Shown here piece after piece: positions 5,318 to 36,285 of a stretch of 64,000 nucleotides of DNA. The notes beneath the pieces were generated by a model that had not been told where the DNA came from, ran no database searches, and saw only the letters and a program-made list of their open reading frames with translations. The stretch lies in assembly GCA_000004985.1 (NCBI GenBank), contig GG738846.1. One strand, 5' to 3'. Position 1 is the stretch's first letter; each line of letters begins with the position of its first letter. Source of the DNA: Naegleria gruberi (lineage: Eukaryota). Both the position numbers and the translations under genes were made by a program.

Positions 5318-8300
5318 TTACAAAATTGTACATGCTTCTGCATTGGCCTGGTACTTATTTACAATATTATATCTGTTGAGGATTACATTCTCTCCATCAC
5401 CAACCCAGGTTTCTTGCTTGGTAGTTTCATTCTTTTGCTCACTCTTTTCATCTTGTTCTCCAATGTGGAATCTACCGAGAATGTATTCATTAGTTCCCTT
5501 TTCAAAGTAGGTGAAATAGGATTCATCGAAAAAGATTTCCTTCTGAGTATGTCTGGTATTACTAGTTGAAAGAGTTGGGAGGGCAAGAACTCTAACAAGT
5601 GCACCAGCATCAGCTCCACAAATACTCCAAATTCTAATAACTGATTCATTAACACAACAAGTAGCAACCATAGTACCAGCAGCAATAACCTTGGCACAAG
5701 AGACAGCACTTGGATGTTCCAAGGTCATTAAACATTGACCTGTGTGCAAGCTCCAAATTTTGACAGTCTTATCGGATGAAGAAGAGGCCAACACATTACT
5801 CAAATCAATCAATTCAGTATTGAGAGACATTGAAGTAACAATGGAATCATGACCTTCAAGAGTATAAATTAATCTCCAACTTGCCATGCTAGTTGAGTTG
5901 CTGATATCATATACATAAATCTTCTTATCAACAGTGCAAGCAATTACTTGTTGAGTAAGTTCCCAAGAGGTAACTTCTTTTGAATCTGTTGGAAGTTCCT
6001 TCAATTCAAAGCTTTTAGAGAGACGTTTCATAGAAATGTCATAAATGTGAACACAATATTGAGTTGGAACACGAGCTAATTTTACAATGGCCATACAGGT
6101 CTTGTTACTAAGTAATTTAACAGCAACAATATAATCCTTAGAATAGGTAACTTCCAAAAATACTTCATCCTTCAACAATTCTGTACCTCCAATAACAACC
6201 AAAGTAGAATTGATATGGTAGTAGCTAGATTCAGTATAAACAAAGCACAAGACACCAAATTGATAATCGAATGGTGAATGTGAAAGATAAGAGTATGGAA
6301 AGTGCAAAACTTCCTTATTAAGACTGATAGTATCCTTCTTGGTTTGCAATTGTTGGCTTGCGAGTACCCTCAATCTGTCCTTGAAATGCAAATACCCTCT
6401 CACAAGAATACCATCAATTTCAGTCCACCCTGTTGGAGACTTTCTCAAATCCAAATCAATTCTAATCTTTTTAGTTGGGTAATCCTTTTTGAGAATTGTT
6501 GGTGCAAAAACTCTAGATCTTTCCATCATTCTACAATTGGTATCGTATGGTTTTCCTAGCCAAACAGTATCCCATGAGTTGGTAGACTTGTCAAATATCG
6601 AAATTTTAAAGACACCACCAGGGCAGAATGTTTCAAAGACACGAACTTCTTCAATGAACATTTCTTCTTCAATTTCAAATTCCAAGAATTCCAATGATCC
6701 AAAACCTAAAGTTCTATTGGATGGTGACCATGCAGTTCCAAAGGATCCATATTTTGGATAGGTATTGACAACTCCAATCAAATTGAGAGCAGAAAATGGT
6801 GGATAATCAGCTCTAGAGTGGGCTGTGGATAAGTCATCATCAGCAGTTGTAGAGGCAGCGCCTCCCTCAGATCTATTTCTTGAAATGTACTCACTGCTGC
6901 AATTCATTACCTTTGAGACCCATTGTTCATATAAAAACTCATCAGTTTCACTTAAAAGGCTCTCGTGAAGCTCTTTCATGGCAGATATTGGCAAATCATC
7001 TTCGAACATATTATCCAAAATTTGTTTTCTTCTACCTGTTAATCTATTGGCAACGTGAGAGTCTTTAGCACTGAACAAACTATAGGTTAAAAGATCATAG
7101 GAAAAGTGATGTTTAAAAGGTTTGGTTGTGTGACGGAAATTCTTTCTAGTATTTAAAATAACACGACCATCCAACAATCTTACATCCTTCAAGTGAAATC
7201 CATTACTCTTCCAATCATCGGTATTGGTTGAACAATAATTCATAATACCACTAAATTCGTCAACAAGACGATCTCTTTCCTTGTCCAATTTTTCCTTTTC
7301 CTTTCTAACTTCCTCTTCATCACTAACATATTCTCTTCTTTTAATGGATGGTTCAACAGAGGTGTTCAAGATTGAAATTTTAGAATCACTTGGTGTGGAT
7401 GGATTGGAAGGTACTTTTGTATTGTTGGTATTTTCAATATCAATCCATCCTTTTCCCTTCACGGCCTCTTTCAAACTGGAAGAGGAGAGTGTGAGAATTT
7501 TCAAATCAGGTTGTGTATAAACTTTCATTAAATTCACTTGACCAAAACGATAACATGTTTGCATTTGCTCTCTATATTTGACAGCATTTCTCCAATTGCA
7601 ACGTGGTCTCTTGTAGTACTCTCTTTCCTCTCGTTGAATTGATTCTTGTGGTTGTTGTTGTTGTTGATTATTTGATGACGATGGTTGGCCTTTTTCAAAA
7701 ACAGATGATAATGTAGAGAAGGAAGCAAAGGATGGTGTTGAAACCAACTGTGGAGGAATTCTAGAGTTTTGAGATTGTGCCGAATTAACGCTTCCTCTTG
7801 GAGAAAGTGGTGTTGATGTTATGATTGGTGAAGAGGGAGCAAGGGGAGATTCAACATTAGCCTTCACAGCAATAGGGAAGGTAGGAGAGGAAATTCCACC
7901 TGTTGTTGTTGTTGTTGTTGTTGTTGCTGTTGTTGGTGTTGGAGGTGGTTGTGCTGAAGCTCCACCTGAAATTAAAAACGATTGACGATTATAGTCGTGA
8001 TAGAAGGTAGTATATGGTTCGTATCTGGCAATAAAGTATTCCAAGAATTTGCTCTCATCATTTCCAACATTTTGAAAGATATGACTTGCCTTGCAACAAC
8101 TTTCAATATCGGCACCATTCATGAAGGAAAATATGTGGAAAATAATACTTTCATTCAATGGTAATTTTCTCTTATTTCTTGTACGGATTTGTACCAATCT
8201 TGCTTTTTGTTTTTTAGAGTAGATTGGATTGATCAGGTGGGTGTGATTTGATGTGGCCGACGACATGCTGCCGGCAGCAGTTAATGATGAAGCTGCTTGG

Positions 8301-8320
8301 GTTGATGTGTCGATGGACAT
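5318..8320 (-). CDS. F-box-like / WD40-repeat protein (1000 aa)
   Basis: ATG verified at 8320. The N-terminal segment (LPLNESIIFHIFSFMNGADIESCCKASHIF) is F-box-like. The C-terminal third has classic WD40 units (DKTVKIWSLHTGQC ... VIRIWS). The central region has a poly-Thr/Gln low-complexity stretch, which is the (GTT)n run at 7895-7935. Confidence 0.65.
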   Translation of the reverse strand: MSIDTSTQAASSLTAAGSMSSATSNHTHLINPIYSKKQKARLVQIRTRNKRKLPLNESIIFHIFSFMNGADIESCCKASHIFQNVGNDESKFLEYFIARYEPYTTFYHDYNRQSFLISGGASAQPPPTPTTATTTTTTTTGGISSPTFPIAVKANVESPLAPSSPIITSTPLSPRGSVNSAQSQNSRIPPQLVSTPSFASFSTLSSVFEKGQPSSSNNQQQQQPQESIQREEREYYKRPRCNWRNAVKYREQMQTCYRFGQVNLMKVYTQPDLKILTLSSSSLKEAVKGKGWIDIENTNNTKVPSNPSTPSDSKISILNTSVEPSIKRREYVSDEEEVRKEKEKLDKERDRLVDEFSGIMNYCSTNTDDWKSNGFHLKDVRLLDGRVILNTRKNFRHTTKPFKHHFSYDLLTYSLFSAKDSHVANRLTGRRKQILDNMFEDDLPISAMKELHESLLSETDEFLYEQWVSKVMNCSSEYISRNRSEGGAASTTADDDLSTAHSRADYPPFSALNLIGVVNTYPKYGSFGTAWSPSNRTLGFGSLEFLEFEIEEEMFIEEVRVFETFCPGGVFKISIFDKSTNSWDTVWLGKPYDTNCRMMERSRVFAPTILKKDYPTKKIRIDLDLRKSPTGWTEIDGILVRGYLHFKDRLRVLASQQLQTKKDTISLNKEVLHFPYSYLSHSPFDYQFGVLCFVYTESSYYHINSTLVVIGGTELLKDEVFLEVTYSKDYIVAVKLLSNKTCMAIVKLARVPTQYCVHIYDISMKRLSKSFELKELPTDSKEVTSWELTQQVIACTVDKKIYVYDISNSTSMASWRLIYTLEGHDSIVTSMSLNTELIDLSNVLASSSSDKTVKIWSLHTGQCLMTLEHPSAVSCAKVIAAGTMVATCCVNESVIRIWSICGADAGALVRVLALPTLSTSNTRHTQKEIFFDESYFTYFEKGTNEYILGRFHIGEQDEKSEQKNETTKQETWVGDGENVILNRYNIVNKYQANAEACTIL

Positions 8321-10359: not shown

Positions 10360-11529
10360 TTGAATTTACTATTAATATTATCATCATCATATGATATTAG
10401 AATTTTGGGAGGATTAAGTAAAACAAGTATATTTTCAAAAATTGGATCAATTCTAGGAGGTGGAGCAACATCAAGGAAGATATTTAATGAGGAGGATTTT
10501 AAATTGTTGGAAAAGGCTCTTCTCTCGAGTGATGTCGGAAATAATACTACACAATTACTTCTAACAAGGATGAAGACACAAGTATCTGAAATTGAAAAGC
10601 AAATTGAAAATAATCCCACTGCAGAGGAAAATGTCAAACCCATGAAGAATATTCTACGTGAGGAAATGCTGAAATTATTCCAATATCCAATGCAACAACA
10701 AATTGTAAAGAGATTGCAACAAAATCAAGGAACACCTGAGGGTGGAGTTTCCATTCCTTTGATTCCATTAAATCCAAAATCAAGACCAACTGTTGTACAA
10801 ATTTGTGGAGTGAATGGATCTGGAAAGACAACAACTATTGGAAAATTATTACACAAGTATAGAGAATCAGGAACTGTTAGAAATATTGTTGTTGCAGCTG
10901 CAGATACAGTCCGAGCAGCAGCTCCAGATCAATTGAGAACTTGGGTTGAACGTACAAGTGGATGTACTCTCGTCGATTTGACAGAATCTGAAAAATTGAA
11001 AAAACAACACACTACAACTCCTCAACAAGTCAAAGTTAAGAATATTAGACAAGTGAGTTATAAGGTTCCTGCTGAAAGTGTAGTTTATGAAGCCATTCAA
11101 CAAGCTTTGAGAAAGGAAGATGTTGACCTTGTTTTTGTTGACACTGCAGGAAGATTGCAAAATCAAGAAGCTTCAATGAAAGAATTGAGTTTAATTACTG
11201 AAATGTGTTCCAAGTCGAGAAAGGGAGCACCTGATCATACATGGCTCATTCTCGATGGTACAATAGGTCAAAATTCTATACAACAAGCCAAACTATTCCA
11301 AAAGTATGTGAGAATTTCAGGAATTATTGTCACTAAATTGGATGGAAGTGCCAAAGGAGGTGTCATTCTTGCAATTGCCAATGAATTGAAAATCCCAGTT
11401 CTCTACATTGGTTTGGGAGAAAGTGTCAGTGATTTGAAACCTTTTTATCCTGAACAATTTGTTGATTCCATCTTGTCAGTAGCCTCAGCAGAGGAAAAAC
11501 AAACAAAATCAGAAGAGGATGATGAATAA
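10360..11529 (+). CDS. ftsY: Bacterial-type FtsY (SRP receptor GTPase, NG domain) with N-terminal extension, candidate organellar targeting
   Basis: ATG at 10360. The SRP-GTPase motifs align almost position for position with E. coli FtsY. These are G1 GVNGSGKTTTIGKL, AAADTVRAAAPDQL, DTAGRLQN, TKLDGSAKGG, and the closing IPVLYIGLGESVSDLKPF. There is no SRX or SR-alpha N-domain. The roughly 70-aa N-terminus (MNLLLILSSSYDIRILGGLSKTSIF...) has the look of a targeting presequence. Confidence 0.8.
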   Translation: MNLLLILSSSYDIRILGGLSKTSIFSKIGSILGGGATSRKIFNEEDFKLLEKALLSSDVGNNTTQLLLTRMKTQVSEIEKQIENNPTAEENVKPMKNILREEMLKLFQYPMQQQIVKRLQQNQGTPEGGVSIPLIPLNPKSRPTVVQICGVNGSGKTTTIGKLLHKYRESGTVRNIVVAAADTVRAAAPDQLRTWVERTSGCTLVDLTESEKLKKQHTTTPQQVKVKNIRQVSYKVPAESVVYEAIQQALRKEDVDLVFVDTAGRLQNQEASMKELSLITEMCSKSRKGAPDHTWLILDGTIGQNSIQQAKLFQKYVRISGIIVTKLDGSAKGGVILAIANELKIPVLYIGLGESVSDLKPFYPEQFVDSILSVASAEEKQTKSEEDDE

Positions 11530-14229: not shown

Positions 14230-16708
14230 ATTCTAATAAGGACAATCCATTCTTTTCATTATTATTGGAAGTGCTTAAATTTTGTAAAACGCACTTGACA
14301 TGCTTCATGGTTGGTCTTTCAGCCCAGTCCTTTTTCAATAAATTCAAAACCAAATCAATAGCAATTGGATTGACTTCCTTCTCCACAAGCTCAGCCCTAA
14401 TGTTATTATAGGCCAATTCATAATTTTTCAAAATTGCATCAGACATGAAATAGGAAGTACTTTCCAATCGAACCTTTGTACGGAATGTCAATAGATTGTA
14501 CAATAAAACTCCAAAAGAAAAACTATCTGTAGCCCTCAAATTCTCTCTAGACATTTCGGCTTTTGATTTCAATTCAGGAGAAATTGTTGGTAATGAACCC
14601 AAATAGAGAGCATGTCTTCTCATTTGAAAGTCTGGACTGTCTCTTGTAATCTTGATTACATCTTGTCTTGTCGATTGCAAGTAACCAAAATCTGCAATCT
14701 TGACACATTTAGAAATGCAAGACGGATCTAAGAGAACATTTTCCACCTTAATATCTCTGTGAACCAAATCTAACTGGTGCAAGTAATTAATTGCATCTGC
14801 AATTTGATAGGCAATCTTGAAAGTATCTGGGAGTGATTCATCACCCTCAACTTCTTCATGATAAAAGATCAAACTAGTCAGTGTATCATAAAAAGGCATA
14901 ACTATATGACAATAGGTTTCTTTGTCTGTCTCACTATTACAAAAACCATCAAGGTATGGAGTGAGATGTTTGTGGGAGAGCGATTTGATTTGGGAAGTGT
15001 GTTGGAAGAACTCGTCAAGCTCTGCATTGGTAATTTTCATGTGTTTGATTGCTACAGTTCGATTATCAGTTTTGGATATGTACTTGTGCAGAATACCTTC
15101 TGCTCCACGCCCAATCTCCTCTACGAGTGTGAAATGTTCTAGAATTTTTTGATTAGTCTCGATATAGGTTTCCTCAATAATTGGAGTTGTATTGGTTGTA
15201 GGTTTCTTCTTTTTTCCAATTTTAATGGTGTTAAATTTGAGTTTACCACCATCTTCCAACTCTATATTATTAATACTATTTACAGTACCAACTCGGTGTA
15301 GAATGGTATAATCTTTACAAGTAAAGATATTTCTAATTGAAGTGTTGCTGAGCTTGAGTGATTCCACAATGTGTGGAGAAATTGGTTGTGGAAAGTTTGT
15401 AGAGATATTACTTCGCCACAGCTGATGGTTATTATTACTGCCCCAAGAATAGATCAATCCACTGATTGTCCTAACCACAGTATGACTATCCCCTGTATCT
15501 ATGGAATGAATCTTCTCCTCTCCAAATAGCTTTTTTTGAAGCTGTACAGGTTCGAATAATTGCTTGTTAATGGAAGGGCTGAAACCTAATTGACCCATGT
15601 GATTTCCTCCAAAAGCATAGAGTTCATTATTGAGGGTAAGAACTATAGAGAAATTGGAGCCTGCGGAAATCTTGCTAATTTGTGATTGAATTCCTTTCAC
15701 TCTATTCAATTGTAAAATGAATTCCTCATGTTTTCCAACTCCTGTTTGGCCAAATGAGTTATGGCCAAACGAATACAATAGTCCTTCAGTAGAGACTGCC
15801 AAAAAATGACCATATCCAACACTAACAGATCTAATAGTAACACTTCCATAATCTCTCTCTGCCTTTTTAATATCTAAACTACCTTCCAAAATTTGAGTTT
15901 CAAAATTTTCAGTGAATGTGTAATAAATCTGACCATCAATAGTCAACCACACTGCTAAACCTCCTTTGTATTGGAAATCTGCTACATTTTCTTTCAATAT
16001 ACTAGCCACATTAGAATTAATTAAATCTTGAATATCTATGGCCTTTCCATCGTTCCACACGTAGAATTCTCCCAATAATTTATCTACAATAAACAATATT
16101 CTTAATTGTGAATTTGTTTCTCTATTTACATTTGAAATGACTTGTTCATTTTCCTCGAATCTATTTGCACGATATGGTGCAGATCGTACAATGTATCTAT
16201 TTAATGAAGTGGAATCTGTCGAAATATCCTCCTCTTCGTCCAATTCTAAAAGTTTTAGCTTTTTCTTCAATTCTGTCCTAATACTTTCTTCCTCATTCAT
16301 GGTCCAAACCATAAAGTCTTCATAAATTTCAAAATCTGAATTCTTTAACAATAGTAATTGATTTGTCTTGCTTCTGACCATTAACAAGTCATCATCGGAT
16401 TGACCTTGAAAACATGATATTTCAAGGTCTTGTGTAAGAAAACTATCTGGTAATGTATTGTCCTCCAATACGAGGATTGAATTGTTTCCACGCCCTGTTA
16501 TCATCAAGGAAGGCCTTTTTACATTATCGTCATCATTAGTACTAGTTGAGAAAGAATGCTGATGAACATTTGATTTGGCCATCGAATAGAAAACCTCTTC
16601 ATGTTGATTACCATGTATCACTAGTACAAATAATTTGAATATCAGCAATATGAGGAGGCAAGCCTTCAATAATATTATCAATGTTGGTGATGAGGTGAAT
16701 GCTTTCAT
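14147..16708 (-). CDS. RCC1-repeat + Ser/Thr protein kinase with N-terminal hydrophobic anchor
   Basis: The first in-frame ATG is at 16708 (the track start at 16738 is TTG). The N-terminus MKAFTSSPTLIILLKACLLILLIFKLFVLVIHG is a signal-anchor. RCC1-like blades are GHNSFGQTG, GGNHMGQLG and GSNNNHQLW. The kinase subdomains are VAIK, HRDIKVENVLL, DFG and SPE. The 3' end overlaps the convergent SET exon 3 by 83 nt. Confidence 0.7.
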   Translation of the reverse strand: MKAFTSSPTLIILLKACLLILLIFKLFVLVIHGNQHEEVFYSMAKSNVHQHSFSTSTNDDDNVKRPSLMITGRGNNSILVLEDNTLPDSFLTQDLEISCFQGQSDDDLLMVRSKTNQLLLLKNSDFEIYEDFMVWTMNEEESIRTELKKKLKLLELDEEEDISTDSTSLNRYIVRSAPYRANRFEENEQVISNVNRETNSQLRILFIVDKLLGEFYVWNDGKAIDIQDLINSNVASILKENVADFQYKGGLAVWLTIDGQIYYTFTENFETQILEGSLDIKKAERDYGSVTIRSVSVGYGHFLAVSTEGLLYSFGHNSFGQTGVGKHEEFILQLNRVKGIQSQISKISAGSNFSIVLTLNNELYAFGGNHMGQLGFSPSINKQLFEPVQLQKKLFGEEKIHSIDTGDSHTVVRTISGLIYSWGSNNNHQLWRSNISTNFPQPISPHIVESLKLSNTSIRNIFTCKDYTILHRVGTVNSINNIELEDGGKLKFNTIKIGKKKKPTTNTTPIIEETYIETNQKILEHFTLVEEIGRGAEGILHKYISKTDNRTVAIKHMKITNAELDEFFQHTSQIKSLSHKHLTPYLDGFCNSETDKETYCHIVMPFYDTLTSLIFYHEEVEGDESLPDTFKIAYQIADAINYLHQLDLVHRDIKVENVLLDPSCISKCVKIADFGYLQSTRQDVIKITRDSPDFQMRRHALYLGSLPTISPELKSKAEMSRENLRATDSFSFGVLLYNLLTFRTKVRLESTSYFMSDAILKNYELAYNNIRAELVEKEVNPIAIDLVLNLLKKDWAERPTMKHVKCVLQNLSTSNNNEKNGLSLLEFNKIEGFYSERSEERRVLHSVLYLTVF

Positions 16709-17214
16709 TCTCCAATTAATCAAAATATTTTCTTTCAAAAAACTTATTAAAAACTTTTCCGTAAGACTTTAAACACACGTAAATCGTTGGTGTTAATATT
16801 ATATTATTGTGTATACTCTTGTGAATTTGTTGCTGATGATGATGATGGTGATGGTGGGTACTACTCTCCTAAATTCAATCACAACTTATTCTTGTTGTGA
16901 ATTAATCATACTTGGTATTTTTTTCTGTTATTTTTTTAATGCATTCTTTTGGTGGTGAATTTGATATTTAATTTTGGAGGGAGATTTGTGAGTGTTTTGG
17001 GTGATTTGAATGATCTTGATCCCCAAAAGTTGAAATGCATTTGGTAAGGTGTCGAGGAATGTGTATGAAAAAGTAGGACGGATGACAATTGAATGAAATA
17101 TTTGAATGTTGTTTCTTTAAGCATTTTCTTGTTTTGATTTGTGACAGTAGTAAACTCAAAATTAATTGATTGATGGTATATTTCCAATTAAAGAGTATTT
17201 TCATTTATTGTATA

Positions 17215-17344
17215 TTAGATAATACCAGTAATCCTAATTGGTTTTTCCTTTCTTAAGGCTGCCACAAGGAAGAAGAAACTTGCAAATAACAAGTGGAATC
17301 CAGCAACTGCTGTTTGAACACAAAAGAATGAATAAACACAACCA
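17215..17344 (-). CDS. Putative terminal exon of the 17441-17985 gene (adds a further TM helix)
   Basis: The 96-nt intron (17345-17440) would join in phase 2 to give ...FCFF GCVYSFFCVQTAVAGFHLLFASFFFLVAALRKEKPIRITGII*. Hand-built model. Confidence 0.3.
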
Positions 17345-17440
17345 CTTTGTTAAATCATTCCATAATCATATTTGTAAGTATTTTGCATAAATAGTTTAAT
17401 AATTTCTCTATTAATTGAAATGGATGAATTAACAACTTAC

Positions 17441-17985
17441 AAGAAACAAAAAACGCATTGAGTTTCATTTCTATACAAGATACTCAAGAATGTACAAACA
17501 TGTTCTGGCCATTGTTTTGGATTCAAGATATCCTCAACAGTGACCTTATCTTGCTTATTAAATTCACTGAAAAAACACCAAACATAAAGAATAAAAGATA
17601 ATAATATACAATAACCACCAGGAATATAGGAGGCCCAAATTGGATCCGATGGTGTCATGACTACAGAAGTAAATCCACAAATAAATAATGTATAGATGGA
17701 TCCGATTTGTAAATTTCTAGCCAGAGGAGCAAACTCTAATTTTGATGTTACTGGATTTTCCTTCTTCGGTGCCTTATATTTTGTTTTAACGAGTGTATCG
17801 TTTTGAGTCTCCCTTACTACTTCATCAGGAACAGACTCGATCAAGGTTTGATTTAATTTTTCTGAAAATCCCTTATAGGATTCCTTTTGTGCTTCATCTT
17901 CAGTGTAATAGATTGGTTGGGACATTGGGTTTTTTTTATTGTTGTGGAAGATTGTACAATGAATGGACCAACAGTTTTTCATCAT
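17441..17985 (-). CDS. Hypothetical small multi-TM protein; exon 1 of 2 (start possibly at the internal Met of MSQPIYY)
   Basis: ORF with ATG at 17985. Two hydrophobic helices. On the minus strand a GTAAGTT donor overlaps the ORF stop (plus 17434-17440). Confidence 0.4.
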
Positions 17986-18776
17986 ATTATCAACGAAATG
18001 CTCCTTCTCTCAAAAACAGCGCCCCAATATCGATAAGCATGCCTTGCTTATTAAGAGGACTCATGTTTCGATTTGGAAAATTAATATTTTCCGAGAGGTG
18101 ATCTTTGGAGAAATATAAAAGTGAGACTATTATTGATTTGACTCCAAATAATATTTGATTAGAAACATTTTATAACTGGAATGATACCCTTAAATCCAAT
18201 TCAAATTGCAGGTTTAAATATCAGTAAAACTTCTAATTAAAATTTACATATATTAATCATCGAAACTCTTCAATTTTGATTTAATTCCAATGTTGCAATC
18301 AAAAGAATAAAGTGAATCAGCTAGAGTCTTTCTCAAAGGCATTAACACGGTTTTAAAATCAATTAATCAGAATGGATCTCTAACTTTTGTAGATCATATC
18401 AAACAATTGAAAATTCTTATCATTTCAATGGTCCATCTTGACAATGAGTTTTCAGAAATAAAACTGCTTGAAACATAACAAGGTGTTTACTATAGATATA
18501 CCATTTCTTACAAGTAATGAATTGACTAAAATCTGACAAACGTATAATCAAACTCATATAAAAGAGAGATTATTCTGCCCTAGATGGAAATCAAGAAATG
18601 GTACTTGGAAATGTTTATTTGGATTGAAATAACCCAAAGTATGACACGATATAATAATCATCATTATTACTAAACATTGGAATTTAAGGTTATTAATAAA
18701 TGAAGAAAATTAAGCCTTAAATTTGTAATATTTTGGCGGGAAAGTTTTTACAGAAATTTATTTTTAATTTAAAAAA

Positions 18777-18855
18777 ATGTCACAAATCTATCACATGTTA
18801 ATTCATCAAGAACACCAAATTAATTCTTTAAAATGTGATTTAATCTTCAAAATCC
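18777..18855. repeat. Short dispersed repeat family member (~75 nt), copy 3
   Basis: ATGTCACAAATCTATCACATGTTAATTCATCAAGAACACCAAATTAATTCTTTAAAATGTGATTT is about 80% identical to the reverse complement of 27590-27660 and 28170-28240. Confidence 0.45.
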
Positions 18856-18964
18856 TCCCAGTCTTCAAAATTGATCGGCGATTTAATAAGGCTTGCAAAC
18901 TTGTCAATAATTTCAAAATAAGCCTTTTTCAAGTCAAAGTCAGAAGAATTAACATTTCTTTCTT

Positions 18965-19054
18965 TTCACAAAAGACACACAATTCATAATTATCGCTTAG
19001 ACAAACAAAGGTGTTACATGAATCACACTTGCATCAGTTGGATTCATTATTGAC
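18965..19054. repeat. Left terminal inverted repeat of the 18965-20539 element
   Basis: Direct alignment with the reverse complement of 20452-20539. Confidence 0.65.
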
Positions 19055-20451
19055 TTTGGTATCAAGCCTCTTATACCAAGCCATTCTCGTAACACCAGAT
19101 AACCCTGTTGCTTTTTGAATAACCTTGCATAACTTAATGGTGTAATCTAAGGTTCTTTCTTTGGCGGTTCTGAAAAGCAATTTCAAATCAAAATTTTCAT
19201 CCTTAGGATCTAGAATTTGATTTGAATTAATTATTTCTAATAATTCCTTGGTGGAATAGAGTTTCATTTTTTTAAAAGTACTTTACTATTGAAACGTTCC
19301 ATTATTATTCATATTCTTCTCAATTATTTAATATTAATCTAACAGTTTATTATTATTATTATTAATAAATTGTTAAATGTCTACTAATGATATTGAATTG
19401 GAATGGTTTGATTCATCCTTAGATGAAAATCTAAAATTCAACCAACAAATAAACCAGAAAATGTTTAATGGAAAAAGGTATTGCTTAGTAATGATAATTG
19501 GATCATTTCAACAAGATTTAAGAACTACCAATTGAATCAAATTGAAAAATCACATTATTATCGGAATTTCTCAATCCAGTTAAAAGACAGAGAATTGGTC
19601 TCCTATCAGAACAAGTATCTGCTTGTATCCTTGTTTATTTGTACCATGAAAGAAACGTAGTATTTATTATTGCTGAGAGTTCTGGTTCTGTCTCTCTTTG
19701 TCTTACAATTATGGATGAACTCTATTCTGTTGTGAGTAATAATAATAACAAGGATTAAAGAATATTAGTAAAATGAGGAAATGTATCAACAAGGATTTAT
19801 GGAGAAACTTCTCCATAGCCTTTTTTTAATCCCCTTTAAAATGGCTGGATGTAGAATTAGCCTCACCGATTATCTTTCCCAGTTCAGAAATGATTTCAGT
19901 TCATATTCTTGTCCTTCCAAATACCAAAACACTTACCATTGACAGAAATTCCTCAAGGATAATCAATTGACAATCCGATTTGTATTCACCCATGTAGGAA
20001 TTGTTTGGTTGAGAGAGGAATTTTGGTTTTCCACCTCTCTCCTTAGTAGTTGATAGATTTTGAATGGTATGATTCGAATTGAGTTGCTGGAGAGATGTTG
20101 TTGGCAAAAGTATAATAAGGTGCTACCACTGTGACACAAAACACACTTTTACAAAATAGAAAATTTTATTAGAATGCAAGTTGGTGGAATTTATGAAACT
20201 ATTTTTATTTCTATACGAAAGACTTATTTAGAAAGTCTGATTTCGAATATTTTTCTTAAAGAGAGGATTCACATTGTTCAATGGAATAGAAGAACGATTG
20301 GATAGTGAATTGAGGGAATTATCTCATAAGAAAACTGGGAAATTTAGGCTCATTTTGTCCATAAATCCATATCCCAGATACAATTCCTCATCATTTTACT
20401 ATTAATAATAAATTATAGTCTCTTATATCATAACGACCTTAGAGACTAGCT

Positions 20452-20539
20452 CAACAATGAATCCAACCGATGCAAGTGTGATTCGTGTAACACCTTTGTT
20501 TGTCTAAGCGAAAATTATGAATGGTGTGTCTTTTGTGAA
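20452..20539. repeat. Right terminal inverted repeat of the 18965-20539 element
   Basis: Reverse complement of 18965-19054. Confidence 0.65.
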
Positions 20540-20572
20540 TTAATTAAGTGTGCTTCAGAACCACTTCCAAAT

Positions 20573-22133
20573 ATGGTCATGTGGCAACCAAAAAAGGGAG
20601 ATTGTGTTGTTGGATTTTTAGAGAACGATGAGTTGACCTCACCATTACAATTATCTAACATTCCATTATTTAATCCCAATTCCATCAAGAAAAAGAAGGA
20701 CATTGTTGAATTTGAAAGAAACGACAATTCAAACCTTTTATTAAGAATTAGAAATTTATTTTTAGAAGAGAGTACAGAAAGGGTAAATAATTTATATGAA
20801 AAAAAGAGCAAGAAATTAACAAACGAAAGTGTTAAAAGAAAGAAGTATTCTAATTCTTCTGATCTGGACTTGGAGAAGGATTTTGAAATTATTGACAAGT
20901 TTGAAAGTCTTTTTAAATCGCCAATCAATTTTGAAGAGTGGAAGGAGAAGAATGTGATTGAGAATTTTTATCCTTCATCTTTGCAAGAGGAAAAGCAAGT
21001 TGATAATTTAGCAAGAAACAACAAATATATAGACAGTCTTCCGACCAATAATCATTGTAATTTGTTTTACCCAACCACGACCACTGCAAAACAAGAAAAG
21101 TTCCAATTGGTTGCTGAATATTTTGAAAAGGAGTATGGCTTGAAGGTTTTATCTGATTTTCCAAAGAGCTTTTCATGCATTTATGGTTTTCTTTATATTT
21201 TCAGAAAGGATAATGGTAGAATTGAATCAAAAATTCAAATTGGGGAAAGACAGAACAAAGACTTGCCATCAAAGCCCTAAGAAGATGTGAAATGGCTTTT
21301 ATATTTCCACTAGAACAGGTGGAAAACAAAAAGGAAGGCCTTGTCAAGGAAAGCAAAGCGATTTGCAGATTGTTAGATTTGGGTTTCGGTCCGTTGAATG
21401 AATTACTCTCCAGTGACAGTGTTACAGATTGTAGATTGGATAGATTGTTCAATGGGGATCGATTCTTCTCAAATTCCAGCAGAGATTTGCAAATCAATTA
21501 CAAAACAAGTCGTATTCACACTCTTGATAAGGGTGACTCTTATTCTTGTTTTATAGATGATGGAAACAACTTTGTAATTCAATCAGATGAGAGAATAATT
21601 GAAAGATCTCCATTTGTGATTAGATTGGATCAAGAAACTTTGGAATCATTCTTTCCAAATCTTCCAACTGAGGTAAAGGATATGTATAATCTTTTAAAGA
21701 GAGTCATTGGATATTCTAAAAAGTATAGCTTGTTAAGATTTGCTTCCTTATTTCAATGCAACCCAAAACCAGCAACTGGATTATCAGTTAAGAAAATTGT
21801 TTTATTAAGAATTTTAATCAAGTTAATAATTTGAAAATTATATTTCCAATTGACGTAGGTGAATTTCAAAGAGTTGATTTTGCCAATTCCCAATTCGTTT
21901 TTAAGAATGCCAATATTCCACTCACACATTTAAAGATGAACTCTAGATTGTTCAATACATTAGCTGTTCAAATCAAATTGAGTAATTCAATTTTCAGAGA
22001 TTCATTCAAAATTACATTAGATGATGATGATGGAGATGATGATGAAGATGATGGAGAAGATGATGAAGAAGATGAAAATGATGATGGAGAAGATGAAGAG
22101 AGAGGAACATCAAAAAAAACAAAATTCGATTAA
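20573..22133 (+). CDS. Hypothetical protein with poly-acidic C-terminal tail (D/E-rich), fragmented over three ORFs and frames
   Basis: ATG at 20573. Three consecutive same-strand ORFs (20573-21280, 21292-21834, 21831-22133) are 12 nt apart or overlapping. This suggests short introns or indels, for example GTAGAA at ~21217 to CCACTAG at ~21326. The tail DDDDGDDDEDDGEDDEEDENDDGEDEE is typical of histone-chaperone-like proteins. Structure unresolved. Confidence 0.35.
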
Positions 22134-22282
22134 TCAGAATAATTAAATTCTTCTTCTTATCAACAAGAAGAAATGTACAATAAACAAATCTGTTACAATA
22201 TACTAAGGTTTAAGAAGAGAGTAATCATTTCTCCAAAAAAATAAATTTGATAAACTAATGGGTTTCTGGAAAAATTGAAAAT

Positions 22283-22347
22283 TTATTCTTGAGAAGCATT
22301 CTTCATGTATTCAATCAAATCGGCTCTTTCGGCTGGCTTCTTCAAAC
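22283..22347 (-). CDS. Cytochrome c, exon 3 of 3 (GLKKPAERADLIEYMKNASQE*)
   Basis: After a 133-nt intron (22348-22480) rich in (TTAAAA)n, the acceptor TTTTAACAG restores the conserved C-terminus. The three-exon CDS is 333 nt, giving 110 aa. Confidence 0.75.
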
Positions 22348-22350
22348 CTG

Positions 22351-22440
22351 TTAAAATTAAGTTAAAATTAAAATTAAATTAAAATTAAATAAAAAAATAA
22401 AATTAAATAAAAAAATAAATGTTAAATAATTAATAATAAT
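22351..22440. repeat. AT-rich microsatellite (TTAAAA/TTAAAT-like units) inside cytochrome c intron 2
   Basis: Repeated AAATTAAAATTAAATTAAAATTAAATAAAAAAATAAAATTAAAT units. Confidence 0.7.
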
Positions 22441-22480
22441 AAAATCATTAAATAATAATGCAAATAAATGATGAGCGTAC

Positions 22481-22741
22481 CTGCAAAAACCATTTTAGTT
22501 CCAGGTATATACTTCTTAGGATCCAACAAATAATCAAAGAGGGATTGTTCATTCCAAGTAACACCCTTTTCCTTATTGGCAGCAGAGTAGGCATAACCTT
22601 CAGCCAAACCAGACTTTCTACCCCACATACCGTAGAGATTTGGACCAACCTTGTGAGCACCTCCCTTGTTGATGGTGTGACATTGGGCACATCTGGCCTT
22701 GAAGATCTTTTCACCCTTAGTTGCGTTACCTTGTGGAATTT
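22481..22741 (-). CDS. Cytochrome c, exon 2 of 3 (haem-binding CAQCH)
   Basis: Encodes (E)[86 protein letters not shown]. The acceptor is TTTGATAG at 22742-22743 and the donor is GTACGC (22480-22475 on the minus strand). The ORF-track start at 22748 is TTG, and there is no in-frame ATG upstream. Confidence 0.85.
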
Positions 22742-23004
22742 CTATCAAATGATGATGATGATGATCATTATATTGTAGGAAAAAGTTATTTCACGTCAAT
22801 TTGTAAAGATGACAATGATGATTTAAAATATGGAACAATATATTAGTAACAGATATATAATGATATATGTAGTGTAGCAAGAAGTAGTAGCAGCAACAAG
22901 TGGTACAAGTCCGTGTGAACAAGTTGTTTCATCATGATGGAAAATAATGTTGATGAATTATTGAAGAAAATATAAATTTCATTATTATTATTGAAGGTAC
23001 GTAC

Positions 23005-23011
23005 CAGACAT
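23005..23011 (-). CDS. Cytochrome c, exon 1 of 3 (ATG TCT G, 7 nt)
   Basis: The minus strand reads aaaaaaaATGTCTG followed by GTACGTACC. The donor sits inside the palindrome GGTACGTACC. This supplies the Met that the main exon lacks. Confidence 0.55.
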
Positions 23012-23596
23012 TTTTTTTATTGTTCAGTGTTGGCCAATTCTACAACACGCGTTCAGCTTAAATTCAACCACGCGCGTCGTTGAGCAACTCTTGGTCAACC
23101 ATTCGTAAAACCAATCAAAATGCCTTAAGGAGAATAATGAATTAATCTAGACAAAAACCGGCCAATTTGTTCTGTTTAGGCGGCGTTTTGAATGTGTGTT
23201 GGTGCAAAGATGATGTGTTGTGAGAAGCATCTCTCTTTCAAATCCCATTTATTGTAAAAAAATGCACAGGAGTTTTTTCCTCGAATCATTTAAATGATGG
23301 GCCGACTGTAAATTTTGGCTATCAAAGAATGGAAGAGAGGATGAAATTAATTGACTGGATGATAATAATATTGGAAAGTGGATGACAACAATAATATATT
23401 ATCTATTCTAGTGGATTGTATTATCCATGCATTTTATTTTGATTGGGTTGATATTGTAGTGCCACATGTGGAATGAAGGAATGAAGAAATTGGAGATTTG
23501 TATAATTTTGGATTTTGGATGTCCCTCTTGTCAATATAATCTTTCCACACCAATTAATTACATTAATTTATATTTAACATTTTAATCTATTAATTT

Positions 23597-24385
23597 TCAA
23601 ATTTTGATAGTATTTTGTTGTAAAAGGACACTCATTATATCTTTAGAGTCAGAGTAGTTATCGAGCATGATAATATTCACCTGTCTTCGTGCAAGTGCTT
23701 GCGTGGATAACCAATTTACAATTTCCGAATTGTAAAAGTGACCCAATTCTAGAGCACTAGATGGCCTGCCAATGATACCATTTGCAATCATTAAATTGTC
23801 TGGTGTAATTTTACATTGAATTGCAAAAAATGATTGATCCTGAACCTTTCTGGAGGAAATTTCTTTCGAGACTCTCATGAACAAATCATGACTATTCCTA
23901 ACAATGGGTCTAAAGTATCGAATATTTGGCAAATCATTATTATTATGGATGGAAAGAGAAGGGGACCAGAACAGTCCATTTGAGTGTTTTACAATATTTT
24001 CATTGTGGTAAATTACGATTATTCTTTGCTTGTTGGTTTGCCTCCAAATTTCATTCAGTGATGAGCTAGCTTGAATAGTTTTAGAGTTGGCCAATAATTT
24101 TCCAAACTTTTTTTTCAAAACACTACTCAAATAATTATGGTCATACTCACTCATTTCAAAAAAGTGAGCAAAATCCAAAATGACAACCTCATTAGGAGAT
24201 TCTTTCATGAATTGAACAATTTCATTAAGAGAATCTTCAATTGGTCTATCAAACATTGTATTACATGATTTGAGCATGGTAACTTTCTTAAATGTTGACC
24301 TGTCTCTACAAGTTCTAATATCAAAATAACGAATACCATCTCGCAATTGTAATAATGCAGATCTACTTTGAGTTTTTGACCATTT
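23597..24385 (-). CDS. PI-PLC X-domain protein, exon 2 of 2
   Basis: The 127-nt intron (24386-24512) ends in CAATAG. The join is in frame and gives ...RVQS|KWSKTQSRSALLQLRDGIRYFDIR..., with the X-domain RYFDIR and ILDFAHF blocks. Confidence 0.7.
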   Translation of the reverse strand, partial: KWSKTQSRSALLQLRDGIRYFDIRTCRDRSTFKKVTMLKSCNTMFDRPIEDSLNEIVQFMKESPNEVVILDFAHFFEMSEYDHNYLSSVLKKKFGKLLANSKTIQASSSLNEIWRQTNKQRIIVIYHNENIVKHSNGLFWSPSLSIHNNNDLPNIRYFRPIVRNSHDLFMRVSKEISSRKVQDQSFFAIQCKITPDNLMIANGIIGRPSSALELGHFYNSEIVNWLSTQALARRQVNIIMLDNYSDSKDIMSVLLQQNTIKI

Positions 24386-24512
24386 CTATTGAATTGAAAT
24401 AATATATATTTTAATTATTTTATAATTGTTATTATATATTTTAATTATTATTAATTTAATTAATTAAATTACAATTATTTGTTTTAAAAAAAAATATATA
24501 TATAAAACTTAC

Positions 24513-24776
24513 CGATTGAACTCTATTTAAAACATCTTTTGGATAATATTTAAGAGTTTTAAATATGAAATGTTCATTTCTCTTTCCATCTGGAGAAATT
24601 CTAGAATATTCATTCAAATGATTTGAAAATGAGGAACGTGTACCAGGAATGACCAATCTATTCAATGGATAATCACCAATGATTCCCCTCAAATCATACA
24701 TCCAACTGGATGGATTTCCCTTATATGGATTTCCCTTAATTTTAGCAACGGGTGGTCCCAAAAAGAATTTTTTCAA
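24513..24776 (-). CDS. PI-PLC X-domain protein (PLCXD-like), exon 1 of 2; true start uncertain
   Basis: Contains SSWMYDL ... LNRLVIPGTRSS (the X-box LxIPGTH motif). The track start at 24776 is TTG. The first in-frame ATG is the M of WMYDL. The exon ends at 24513 before a GTAAGT donor. Confidence 0.6.
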
Positions 24777-25281
24777 TAAGGGTTAGACCGAAGGAGGTGA
24801 GCTAAAAAATGTTACATCACGGTAATTTCGCGCCAACCAAAAACCGCTGAAAGTTGTCTGTTCTGACCGTTAAATATTCAACAAAAAAAAACAACAAACA
24901 ACAATTACTCATCATGAATTCATCATCACCCTGCTAAATAGGTATATTGGTTGGTATTCCCACCTTCAGCATGCTACCTTGAGAAGCCACCATGAGGAGA
25001 GTTCTCCCTTTGCTTCCTTCCTCACCAGCCATTACTACATTCACCTCGCCAAAACATCATCTAGATAAGTGCCTGCCCATTTACTTGAAATTGTTGGTAC
25101 ATTAAAGCGAAGGTTCATGTACAAGAACCCAGAAGTACTTGTTTCTAGAAGAACAAGTGGTAATTGATACTTTGAACACACTGTCTCACTCTTGGTCCAA
25201 TAAACCTTCGGCTCGACTTTAACAAATTTTTGTTTTTTGAGTGACTTCTAAATTTTTTATAAAAATATTTGTCAATCCTTC

Positions 25282-25644
25282 TCACCTCCCACGGTCTAAT
25301 AAGGGTGTATTGATTTTCTTTTTCAACTTGTCATACACTGATTGAATGAATAGAGTACTTGTTGCCAATTCATTACTTATTTCCAATGTTTTTGAACTAT
25401 TTTCAGTGCAGGTTTGATCTAATTGTTTAAAAATCAAACGAAACAAATTTCTTTTCGATTTTGGATATTTTATAAAGAGGGTTTGCTTACTGTGTCTCAA
25501 TCTGGCAGAGGGTTTCCAAACACCATTTCCTTGTTCGAATTGATTACATAAGAAACCAAACGAAACCTCTCCCAATAATGATAAAAATAATATCACCAAC
25601 AATGATACAACCATTGTCATTAATTGATGACTACAATTCTTCAT
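25282..25644 (-). CDS. Small secreted/TM protein (~120 aa) with N-terminal signal peptide
   Basis: The track ORF starts at a GTG. The first ATG gives MKNCSHQLMTMVVSLLVILFLSLLGEVSFG, which looks like a signal peptide. No known domain. Confidence 0.35.
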   Translation of the reverse strand: MKNCSHQLMTMVVSLLVILFLSLLGEVSFGFLCNQFEQGNGVWKPSARLRHSKQTLFIKYPKSKRNLFRLIFKQLDQTCTENSSKTLEISNELATSTLFIQSVYDKLKKKINTPLLDRGR

Positions 25645-25915
25645 CTCTTCAATTTTTTTTTCTCTCTCAATACTGTTATTGAAATCATTCAATGATGGAG
25701 AATGATGGAATACAACAAATTTACAATAAATTTTTTTTTCATCTAAGGTATATTCCAAGACCTCATCCACACAATTAATATCATATAATAAAAATCAAAC
25801 AATCATCAAGTTGAGTTGAATCAGATAAGTTATTATTGTATCCACGTGGATATTACTCGATGAAAGAAGATATTCCTTCTAATTTGTTTCAAAAAAATAT
25901 TTTAAAAATAAAAAA

Positions 25916-25997
25916 ATGAACAACAATAACGATCAAACTCTGTTGCCTTTCGAAGGAGGAGGAGGTTCTACAAGTAATGGTGGTTTGGAGTTTCAAG
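25916..25997 (+). CDS. Yip1-domain (YIPF) Golgi membrane protein, exon 1 of 2
   Basis: ATG at 25916, encoding MNNNNDQTLLPFEGGGGSTSNGGLEFQ. A GTTAGT donor lies at 25998. Confidence 0.5.
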
Positions 25998-26063
25998 GTT
26001 AGTTGGATTCGTGTTGGAAAAAATTTATATAAATTTATTATTATATCGGATCATCAATTCTAG

Positions 26064-27007
26064 AATTTGGAACTCATCAACAATTAACCTTTCCTTCTGA
26101 TCCGATGGGATCAATGACTCTTGATGAAAATCCAATGATGAGTAATATTCCATCAAGTGGTGCCACTGCTGGTACTAGTACTGGTAGTAATCAACAACAA
26201 CAAAATACAATAGTATTGAGTGGAGATGATTCTGATGATGAAATGACCAATGTGGATTATTCACAATATAGTTTTTGGAACCTTGAATATTATATTCCAT
26301 TCTTTAATGTGAATACTAATGAAGTACTCAGGAGAATAACCAAACCATATCTCTTTTTTTTGAACACTGACGAATCTTTTGTATCATACACAAAGAGAGG
26401 AAAGAGACAATCTGATCTGTGGGGACCATTTTGGATTATCACAACACTTATTGTTGTAATTGTCATGACTAGTAATATTGGACACTTTTTTAATTTAAAT
26501 GCTATCGGAAAAGAGTTGGAGGGAGATTTTCAACAATCTGGATCCAATAATAATACATCAGGAAATGAAGCTTTCCGTCGACCAACAAGTGATTTATTAG
26601 AATGGACAACTGACTTTTCACTCATTTCTGTAGGAGCAACAGTGTTTTATGCATTTTCTATGGTAGTTCCTGCTCTTTTATGGGTTGCTATGAAATATAA
26701 GGGTGTAACTGTTAGTCTTGTTGAAACCATATGTGTCTATGGATATTCTTTCGCAGTAGTTATACCACCACTTGTTTTATGCATGTTCAATATTACTTGG
26801 TTGAGATGGATTTTGATTATGGGAGGATTTTTATATGCCAGTGTTTTTATAGTATTTGGTTTATTCAAAGAATGGAAGAAGGTTGTCACTGGTCCACAAG
26901 ATAATATTTTCCTTCTTGTTTTTGCAGCTTTTATTGTACTTTCTCACCTCATTTTGGCTGTCTTTGTCAAGTTTTACTTTTACACATTTTCAGTTGATTT
27001 GAAATAA
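26064..27007 (+). CDS. Yip1-domain (YIPF) protein, exon 2 of 2
   Basis: The 66-nt intron ends in TTCTAG (26062-26063) and joins in phase 1. The Yip1 signature is FWNLEYYIPFFNVNTNEVLRRI ... DLWGPFWIITTL, followed by 5 TM helices. Confidence 0.7.
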
Positions 27008-27430
27008 ATTTTGTAATATTTAATTGAAATATGGTTTATCATTGAAATTGTAATATATTTATTATAACTAAACTGAATAGGAATAGTAGTGTTTTTTCAA
27101 TAATGAAATTTTTATTCTACAAGTGCATCATTATACTTTGTTGGGAATTAGTTGTTGATTGCTAAAGGAAGAAGCAATGGTTTATCCTTTGGAATAAAGT
27201 GAGGAATAGTTGACGTTTTGTTCAAGTCAATGTTGATTTTAAAAAAATACAAACACCTTACAACAATTCCACAACACCACTACCCAAATAAGAAAGTATT
27301 ATAAAAATAAAACCTGAACTTCAATGACGAAATCAGAATTGGATAATTGAAATAAACTAAATCACAAAAAAGAGAAAACCAATAAACAAAATAAGCCACA
27401 TATAAAACCACCATTGAAACAAAGTTTTGC

Positions 27431-27665
27431 TTGTTGATGGTAAAATATTTGTTGTGGTGGTTTTAATAATTAATAACGAGGGGATGGAAAATCCGTCATC
27501 CAAATCCCACACAACTCCTCCACTAAAATCCAGAATCCACAATATCTGGGATTTGGATTAAGGTTATTCCATCCCCTCTTAACAACAAATCACATTTAAA
27601 AGAATTAATTTGATTTTCTTGATGAGATAAAATGTGGTTGATTTGATGTGTCATTTTTGAAATTT
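27431..27665. repeat. Local duplicated segment, copy A (carries the MITE-like insertion)
   Basis: Apart from the 27474-27579 insertion, this aligns base for base with 28123-28240. Confidence 0.6.
27474..27579. mobile_element. MITE-like ~105-bp insertion with 12-bp perfect TIRs (GAGGGGATGGAA ... TTCCATCCCCTC), flanked by TTAA/TAA
   Basis: The sequence is present in copy A and absent from copy B. The ends are perfect inverted repeats. An internal second inverted pair is TCCAAATCCCA / TGGGATTTGGA. The empty site TAATAATTAACAACAAAT is reconstituted exactly when the element plus one TTAA is removed. Confidence 0.5.
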
Positions 27666-28122
27666 TCTTTAATATTGGTAAAATCTTAATCCAAACTTTA
27701 CAGTAAAGTCAGACTTGGAAATTATAGTCAAAGTTTAATTGTGGTAGTATAATAGTGTTTCTTCTATTACAAGAACAATAATAAAAGGTAGAGAAATTTA
27801 AATTTTAAAAATAAAATATAGAAAGAAATATGATTATTCTGAGTTAATGGATATCTATTTGCAAGAAATTATCTTAACCATCAATCATTACAAAGATCTT
27901 ACCATTAATGCAATCACAAACCATCATCAAGATCCAGATTATGATCATATTGATTTCATTAAGCAAAATATTGTAAAAGAATTGAAGTTTTAATGGATCT
28001 GCAATTAAAATTGGTGCTGGAAGTGTATATTGTAAAAGGTTGAGATATTTGTGTTAAATATTGCAACCTTCTTACAACCACCAAAAAGCAAGACAAAAGA
28101 AAGCGAATTCTTTTTCTTTTTG

Positions 28123-28240
28123 TTGTTGAGGGTAAAATATTTGTTGTGGTAGTTTTAATAATTAACAACAAATCACATTGAAAAGAATTAATTTGATTTT
28201 CTTGATGAGATAAAATGTGGTTGATTTGATAAATCATTTT
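28123..28240. repeat. Local duplicated segment, copy B (empty site)
   Basis: Reads TTGTTGAGGGTAAAATATTTGTTGTGGTAGTTTTAATAATTAACAACAAATCACATTG..., an uninterrupted match to copy A. Confidence 0.6.
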
Positions 28241-28394
28241 CTTTGATTTCAGTTGATAAAGCTTGTTTTTGGTATTACCGTTTTTGTGAATAATATATAT
28301 TTATTTTGAAAATTACAATTCTTTTCCTCTAAAGTTGTTGATTGAGAATAATTGTTTGATCTGAAAGTTAGTTATGATGCACTATCTTGATTTT

Positions 28395-28981
28395 TTATTC
28401 TTCATTTGGTTGATCATCTAATAATTTACCATTATTTTTTTCTGATAAAGCTTCATCATCCTCATTTTCAGAATAATAGGCCTCACTTCCACCATCATTA
28501 ACATCCAAGTAATTGATTGCCAATTGCTTGTTTTCAGCTTCTTCCAAATCAATTGATAGGAATTTTGAAGTATCAATTCTGGCAGCTTGAGGATTTGGAT
28601 TTTGATGATGTTTATCCTTGAGTAAATATGTTTCCATTTTCCCCTTTCCTTTAACATCTACCTCTCTAGTTTCGAATTCAAATAAATCATAAACTCTTTC
28701 ATAAGTTGCTCTTGAAATTTGAATCCTTCCTGGTTCACCTGTAGATTCCATTCTTGAGGCAGTATTGACAGCATCTCCCCACAAATCATAGGCAAACTTT
28801 GAACTTCCTAATACACCTGCTGTTACTGATCCTGTGTGAACACCAACACGAATGTTTAAATTTGTATTATGTTTGACATTGTAATTGTATAAAATTGTAA
28901 ATTGACCCATTCCAAAATTAATAACCTTTTCAGGGTGATCTGATTGCTTTTGATGCAAACCACCAGCAAGGAAATAGGCAT
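28395..28981 (-). CDS. PAS-cyclase, exon 2 of 2 (rest of cyclase catalytic domain)
   Basis: The 53-nt intron (28982-29034, GTAAGT ... AATTTAG) joins in phase 1. This restores KIKTIGDAYFLAGGLHQKQSDHPEKV ... IRVGVHTGSVTAGVLGSSKFAYDLWGDAVNTASRMESTGEPGRIQIS, the canonical class III cyclase motifs. Confidence 0.75.
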
Positions 28982-29034
28982 CTAAATTAAATGATTAATT
29001 ACTATACATGCCAAATATTATCAACAAAACTTAC

Positions 29035-35406: not shown

Positions 35407-36285
35407 ATGAGTTCTACTAAGGTTCAAGTACCTCTCACTGATGAGAGCGAGGAAGATGATGTATTTGACTATGAGGTTGGTGATGACGATGACGAGTATA
35501 GTGATGAGGAGGATCATAAAGCAACCTCATCTTCCTTATTACATGCAACGAATAGTAATCCATTTGCCCCAATGCAAGCTTATAAACAATTACTCGGAAG
35601 TGATGTTGAAACAATACGAGCCTTTTTGGAAAACAAATCAAAGAACAAGTACTTTTATATAACGGTAAAGATGGGAGAAAAGAAGGGAAAATTGCGAGTA
35701 AGAATGGGCAGAGAAATTAACAGTTTTGATTTTGAAGATGCTATCGAGTTAACATTGGAGCAACAAACATATATCAGTTTTACTGGAATGGAAAATAAGA
35801 GAACAGGAGAGGTGTTTCCAATGATAGAACATCCAGTTATTCCTGGAACCACCTTACTGGAAAAAAAGTATGTCAGCAAGATGAAGGATGGAGAGGAATA
35901 CTTTTTATTAACAAGGGATATCAGAGATGATGCAGCTAATTTACTTACTCGTGAACAATTGGAGAGTATTAGAGAAAAATTCAACAAGATTGATGAGAAT
36001 AGAACTGGTTTTATATCTCACGATGAAATTAGGAAATATTTTGCAAAACATAGAGACCAAAAGATTTCCAGTTATATAGAATTTGCCAATGAAAAGATTA
36101 GAAAAGAACCTAAGAAGGAAGATTACCATCAACAACAACTTCAAAAGAGAATTAACATGGCAAAGAAACAATACCAAAAGAATGTAGACTATTTCCTCTC
36201 CATTGATATTAACGGAGATGGTTCAATCAGTTTTGAAGAATTTAGAAATAACGAAGTCAAATCTTACATTACTCAAAATAAATAA
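35407..36285 (+). CDS. EF-hand calcium-binding protein with acidic N-terminus (292 aa)
   Basis: ATG at 35407. The C-terminal half carries EF-hand loops DENRTGFISHDE and DINGDGSISFEE. Confidence 0.6.
   Translation: MSSTKVQVPLTDESEEDDVFDYEVGDDDDEYSDEEDHKATSSSLLHATNSNPFAPMQAYKQLLGSDVETIRAFLENKSKNKYFYITVKMGEKKGKLRVRMGREINSFDFEDAIELTLEQQTYISFTGMENKRTGEVFPMIEHPVIPGTTLLEKKYVSKMKDGEEYFLLTRDIRDDAANLLTREQLESIREKFNKIDENRTGFISHDEIRKYFAKHRDQKISSYIEFANEKIRKEPKKEDYHQQQLQKRINMAKKQYQKNVDYFLSIDINGDGSISFEEFRNNEVKSYITQNK

Follow-up and report, generated by a model that had tools for sequence, protein, structure and literature searches.

The minus strand of positions 22283–23011 of the 64-kb window (the whole stretch of Naegleria gruberi DNA that was analysed) carries a nuclear cytochrome c gene whose three coding exons measure 7, 261, and 65 nt. 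The coding sequence joined from 23011–23005, 22741–22481, and 22347–22283 is 333 nt long, remains in frame, ends in TAA, and encodes a protein of 110 aa that is identical, residue for residue, to "cytochrome c [Naegleria gruberi]" (XP_002682852.1 / EFC50108.1 / UniProt D2UZ85). The gene model is that of the existing annotation, and the gene is already known in GenBank, RefSeq, and UniProt. An earlier note, made from the sequence alone, had proposed a three-exon structure with a 7-nt first coding exon; it was right at every splice junction, and its product is the annotated D2UZ85. We put the probability that the N. gruberi cytochrome c gene consists of three coding exons separated by two GT-AG introns and specifies 110 aa at about 0.97.

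Locus and Gene Product

XP_002682852.1 is recorded on the same 1,001,995-bp scaffold as other annotated proteins that match open reading frames (ORFs) of the window. Exact matches to annotated proteins of N. gruberi NEG-M were found at 5318–8320 (XP_002682849.1), 10570–11529 (XP_002682642.1), 35407–36285 (XP_002682646.1), and 58759–59613 (XP_002682652.1), and the UniProt number D2UZ85 falls in positional order between D2UZ80 (at 10.6 kb in the window) and D2UZ89 (at 35.4 kb). An exhaustive search for GT-AG introns yielded exactly one splicing of 22283–23011 that gives the annotated protein; because the products are identical and this solution is unique, the annotated exon layout is taken to be the same as that described here.

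The spliced product matches Pfam PF00034 at residues 10–107 with 54.5 bits (cut-off, 21.3), as a class I cytochrome c does. Its haem-attachment motif CAQCH (C20–H24) aligns with the CXXCH of solved structures, as does the axial ligand Met86 within P82-G-T-K-M86. Over its whole length, the protein can be aligned with cytochromes c of solved structure from plants, animals, and yeast (E = 1e-41 to 2e-48), and its length lies within the class used for this full-length comparison, namely the approximately 104–112 aa of characterised mitochondrial cytochromes c. The best matches among solved structures were 9msz (E = 1.9e-48) and rice 1ccr (9.9e-47), and the horse, human, and yeast proteins gave E values of 1e-41 to 1e-44. 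The description of the N-terminus as plant-type in the earlier note holds only loosely: residues 2–108 align with residues 5–111 of the rice protein (SEAPPGNPKAGEKIFK), but the latter is three N-terminal residues longer. The product is a soluble mitochondrial class I cytochrome c, which, judged by homology, would attach haem covalently and transfer electrons between complexes III and IV.

On the plus strand, the ORFs at 20573–21280, 21292–21834, and 21831–22133 resemble pieces of a single gene interrupted by short introns or by changes of frame. This putative gene (20573–22133) ends in an extended tail rich in Asp and Glu and is convergent with the cytochrome c gene, the 3′-end of which is about 150 nt away.

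Exon–Intron Organization

The coding part of exon 1 (minus strand, 23005–23011) reads ATGTCTG, namely ATG TCT G, which specifies Met1 and Ser2 and supplies the first base of the Glu3 codon; it is preceded by a run of eight A residues (23012–23019, minus strand) directly before the ATG and followed by GTACGTACC. Exon 1 comprises the 5′-untranslated region in addition to these coding nucleotides, and the figure of 7 nt counts the coding part only, not the whole exon. The first segment is a coding segment of 7 nt, and it is a micro-exon in the strict sense only as a candidate. The A-rich context of the start codon is common to six genes compared, with 6–8 A residues before the ATG in four of the Naegleria genes and ACAAAA in Willaertia magna.

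Intron 1 (minus strand, 22742–23004) is 263 nt long, runs from GTACGT to TTTGATAG, interrupts codon 3 in phase 1, and has a GC content of 27%. Exon 2 (minus strand, 22481–22741; 261 nt) begins with AAATTCC at 22741, extends from the remainder of Glu3 to the first base of Gly90, and carries both CAQCH and Met86; its identity to the orthologues is 94–96% by tblastx. As the earlier note had recognized, the exon-2 frame lacks an in-frame ATG upstream of its conserved part, although the frame opens at 22790, after a TGA at 22793–22791, and not at 22796 as had been claimed. Intron 2 (minus strand, 22348–22480) is 133 nt long, runs from GTACGC to TTTTAACAG as had been described, interrupts codon 90 in phase 1, and has a GC content of 9.8%; it consists almost wholly of A/T-rich tandem repeats with periods of 5–37 nt. 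The coding part of exon 3 (minus strand, 22283–22347) covers the remainder of Gly90 to Glu110 and the TAA stop codon (22285–22283), and its joining to exon 2 restores LKKPAERADLIEYMKNASQE, as had been predicted and in agreement with the orthologues.

Both introns have GT-AG borders (GTACGT...TAG and GTACGC...CAG), and their removal restores the frame and a conserved protein. The donor of intron 2, GTACGC, deviates from the GTAAGT, GTATGT, and GTACGT donors of the other introns, which counts against the model. An RNA gene inside the introns was considered and rejected: a search of Rfam over 21500–24000 (E ≤ 1) returned nothing in intron 1 and only a C/D-box match outside the gene, and the intron-1 alignment has no conserved core. 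That match, to the snoRNA sR2 at 22020–22065 in the acidic-tail region of the neighbouring gene, is at chance level (19.3 bits against a threshold of 42; E = 0.25). Directly before the intron-1 acceptor lies a perfect (CAT)5 microsatellite (22749–22765), and the orthologues of N. lovaniensis and N. fowleri likewise have runs rich in CAT/CAC in their intron 1.

Expression of the gene would begin with a pre-mRNA starting upstream of 23011, the first exon of which would consist of the 5′-untranslated region and ATG TCT G. The spliceosome would then remove the two GT-AG introns, of 263 nt in codon 3 and 133 nt in codon 90, both in phase 1. That both are removed in N. gruberi cells is suggested by the identity of the spliced product to the annotated protein together with the comparative evidence given below. 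At the 3′-end, an AATAAA hexamer overlapping the stop codon (22282–22287, minus strand) is a candidate polyadenylation signal and may direct formation of the transcript end; AATAAA also occurs soon after the stop codon in N. lovaniensis C9374_009445 (locus L001) and N. fowleri FDP41_012651 (locus L002).

Conservation of the Start-Codon Intron in Naegleria

The genomic loci of the nearest homologues were compared, and the splice solver returned a single solution for every gene of Naegleria. In N. gruberi, intron 1 (263 nt) follows coding nucleotide 7 in phase 1. The same position and phase are found for intron 1 in N. lovaniensis C9374_009894 (locus L004; 198 nt) and C9374_009445 (117 nt), and in N. 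fowleri FDP41_006491 (locus L003; 561 nt) and FDP41_012651 (148 nt). All five genes start with ATGTCTG|GTA(A/C/T)GT and resume with AG|AAATTC, whereas the body of the intron is largely unalignable; column identity over the region aligned averages 35%. Comparison with orthologues, which the earlier note had named as a check on its model, bears the model out in that four other Naegleria genes share the 7-nt first coding exon. The genomes of N. lovaniensis and N. fowleri were annotated by BRAKER1 with RNA-seq (PMC6125883, PMC6831594), and therefore independent, transcript-guided pipelines recover the same 7-nt coding exon.

At the protein level, C9374_009894 of N. lovaniensis is identical to the N. 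gruberi protein at 106 of 110 residues and FDP41_006491 of N. fowleri at 103 of 110. The former gene has both introns at the N. gruberi sites; the latter shares the site and phase of intron 1 but lacks intron 2. These two genes are taken as orthologues on the basis of protein identity, since their flanking genes show no synteny with the window. Synteny itself was tried as support for orthology and rejected, because tblastx of six loci with 2–6 kb of flanking sequence against the window matched the cytochrome c gene only. Gene order at 16000–29000 is not kept relative to the flanks of the loci of N. lovaniensis, N. fowleri, and W. magna (L001–L005); between N. lovaniensis and N. fowleri, the cytochrome c loci are syntenic. 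The remaining two genes are paralogues of lower identity: C9374_009445 of N. lovaniensis (96 of 110 residues), in which the 3′ intron lies 10 nt upstream, after Met86, and FDP41_012651 of N. fowleri (95 of 110), which has the same intron-1 site but no 3′ intron. No copy of this paralogue type was found in the 64-kb window.

An alternative to the start-codon intron is that no first intron exists and that translation starts within the exon-2 ORF, either at a non-ATG codon (TTG at 22748, which would yield MIEIPQGN...) or internally, at Met41. A bacterial-style ORF list does include a TTG-initiated ORF at 22422–22748, and ORF calls on metagenome contigs give such read-through N-termini in related genes (P0127–P0129). 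The host, however, is a eukaryote, and, while ATGTCTG|GTA and AG|AAATTC are the same in all five genes, the segment before the acceptor shows no conservation. A start at Met41 would remove the CAQCH haem-binding site, and neither of the truncated proteins was found in the protein collection. Moreover, W. magna encodes a contiguous MSEIP. Its intronless gene ABK040_015550 (locus L005) reads ATGTCTGAAATTCC without interruption, that is, a contiguous ATGTCTGAAATT, and this stretch of its coding sequence (ATGTCTGAAATTCCAAAG, ATGTCTGAAATTCCAAAGGGT) is that produced by splicing in Naegleria apart from the Gln/Lys codon. The spliced Naegleria N-terminus is therefore confirmed by a gene in which it is contiguous, and the absence of a first intron is highly improbable.

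It could also be supposed that the start codon comes from another exon upstream. Within 800 nt upstream there are 12 open, phase-compatible combinations of ATG...GT, eleven of them besides the one proposed being compatible in both phase and frame, but a consensus donor (GTA[ACT]G[TC]) is present in only 1 of the 12, namely ATGTCTG|GTACGT. None of the other eleven has such a donor, several lie inside the neighbouring ORF at 23597–24346, and none would yield the MSE N-terminus that is common to six heterolobosean genes, so that the chance of another first exon is minimal.

Nor is the locus at all likely to be a decayed pseudogene that has lost its start codon: the conserved ORF does lack an in-frame ATG and stops 21 codons short of the C-terminus, but canonical introns repair both defects exactly, the haem-binding and ligand residues are intact, tblastx of the six loci found no second cytochrome c copy in the 64-kb window, and codon differences from the N. 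lovaniensis orthologue are synonymous at 32 codons and non-synonymous at 4. Judged from these codon counts, selection on cytochrome c is strongly purifying.

Gene Finders and Database N-Termini

The suggestion of the earlier note that gene finders would easily miss the 7-nt exon does not hold for eukaryotic pipelines, as the model is present in the N. gruberi annotation and in the BRAKER1 annotations of the four N. lovaniensis and N. fowleri genes. Read-through of the intron-1 acceptor was encountered only in ORF calls on metagenome contigs (P0127–P0129; ENA, Logan, and JGI contigs), which carry spurious N-termini such as ...NTEIPQGN and ...KSIEIPKGN (MLISNTEIPQGN, ...DDAKSIEIPKGN). These three database proteins are mis-started, and they caution that the N-termini of this cytochrome c are falsified when ORFs are called on environmental Naegleria-like contigs. 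A correct eukaryotic gene model, including a 7-nt exon that holds the start codon, can be rebuilt from raw sequence; beyond such quality control, the model itself matters little and contains nothing unexpected to a specialist.

Variation of the 3′ Intron

Unlike the intron in the third codon, the 3′ intron varies within the genus. It splits Gly90 after coding nucleotide 268, in phase 1, in both N. gruberi (22348–22480; 133 nt) and the N. lovaniensis orthologue (L004, 6467–6752; 286 nt). In the N. lovaniensis paralogue (L001, 6376–6496; 121 nt), it is located 10 nt upstream, after coding nucleotide 258 and in phase 0, and it is absent from both N. fowleri genes (L002 and L003). The environmental fragment P0127 ends in ...GTKMVSLS, consistent with ATG|GTAAGT having been read through at the upstream (nt 258) site. 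These differences could reflect intron sliding, or independent gain and loss. The five genes form a within-genus series of intron evolution, with a fixed 5′ intron and a 3′ intron that some genes have, others lack, and one has at a site displaced by 10 nt.

Sequence Motifs around and Upstream of the Start Codon

The earlier note had drawn attention to several motifs near the start codon, all of which exist in the sequence. The palindrome GGTACGTACC (23005–22996), in which the exon-1 donor is embedded, is real and perfect, but it is not conserved, the orthologues reading GGTACGTCTT and GGTATGTACT. As a functional element it was rejected: the GTACGT donor is itself nearly self-complementary, and the unconserved palindrome is regarded as a coincidence. 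The CCAAT boxes (ATTGGCC) are present at 23032–23038 and 23160–23166, but nothing conserved corresponds to them when the upstream regions of the three orthologues are aligned. A heptamer, AAATTGG, does occur at a similar distance (−155 to −162) in all three, so the copy of ATTGGCC at 23160–23166 may deserve a second look. The CACGCGCG motif is likewise present, at 23070–23077, where the coding strand has ACGCGCGT and the plus strand reads CACGCGCG, but this segment lacks a counterpart in the orthologues, and as a promoter element the motif is unsupported. In the window there is a single copy of the palindrome ACGCGCGT, compared with 0 expected from shuffles; 20 nt further downstream, the coding strand has ACGCGT. 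The orthologues conserve neither of the two.

A further motif, which the earlier note had not named, is the inverted CCAAT box CATTTTGATTGG (minus strand, 23111–23122), a candidate promoter element located 100–111 nt upstream of the ATG. This 12-mer is the longest word that the N. gruberi upstream region shares with those of the orthologues, where it is found at about −83 in N. lovaniensis and about −86 in N. fowleri; its core, TTTTGATTGG, starts at −109, −81, and −84 in N. gruberi, in N. lovaniensis, and in N. fowleri, respectively. The upstream region of W. magna has GATTGG at −97, and in the N. fowleri paralogue (L002) CCAATCAAAATG is found inside intron 1, at +85. A shared word of 12 nt was reached in 57 of 2000 dinucleotide-preserving shuffles (p about 0.03). 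The 12-mer might be a CCAAT element that is conserved in the region upstream of a gene for respiration; the support is weak, and we treat it as a lead, not as a finding. The core occurs only twice in the 64-kb window, at 23111–23120 (minus strand) and 23437–23446 (plus strand), both in the spacer upstream of the cytochrome c gene, and the proximal copy (23111–23120) is conserved in the orthologues. A full-text literature search for CCAAT elements in Naegleria returned no paper.

Intron 1 has been kept in five Naegleria genes while the 3′ intron has been gained, lost, or shifted, and this contrast raises the thought that the start-codon intron might be needed for expression, through intron-mediated enhancement or promoter-proximal elements, and that the CCAATCAAAATG inside intron 1 of the N. 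fowleri paralogue, together with the TGATTGG located some 80–110 nt upstream, might mark a control of the NF-Y/HAP type. We consider this reading unlikely, if less so than the rival gene models dealt with above. If it were true, a discoban would have a respiratory gene under NF-Y/HAP-type control, for which UAS2 of yeast CYC1, with the consensus TNATTGGT, would be a parallel.

Comparison with Other Cytochrome c Genes

Outside Naegleria, the heterolobosean cytochrome c genes compared are intronless. The protein of W. magna has the N-terminus MSEIPKGN and is identical to that of N. gruberi at 103 of 110 residues, and that of Acrasis kona belongs to the same family and has the same N-terminal pattern. 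Among the sampled Heterolobosea, the start-codon intron is therefore confined to Naegleria, and it is older than the split between the two paralogues. For the Chlorella variabilis gene (locus L007), a splice solver allowing up to five GT-AG introns gave no solution, and a literature search for the structure of the Naegleria cytochrome c gene returned nothing specific.

Start-codon-proximal introns are common in intron-poor eukaryotes. An independent parallel to the Naegleria arrangement is the cytochrome c gene of the fungus Conidiobolus coronatus (L008, 1001–1462), which, like the Naegleria genes, has a tiny first coding exon, in this case of 16 nt, followed by a phase-1 intron. However, its first intron does not interrupt codon 3 but the Gly codon equivalent to Gly7 of Naegleria, and its second intron is located at codon 28, so that the intron positions of the two lineages are not homologous. 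The 16-nt exon of C. coronatus means that tiny start-codon exons in cytochrome c genes are not unique to Naegleria.
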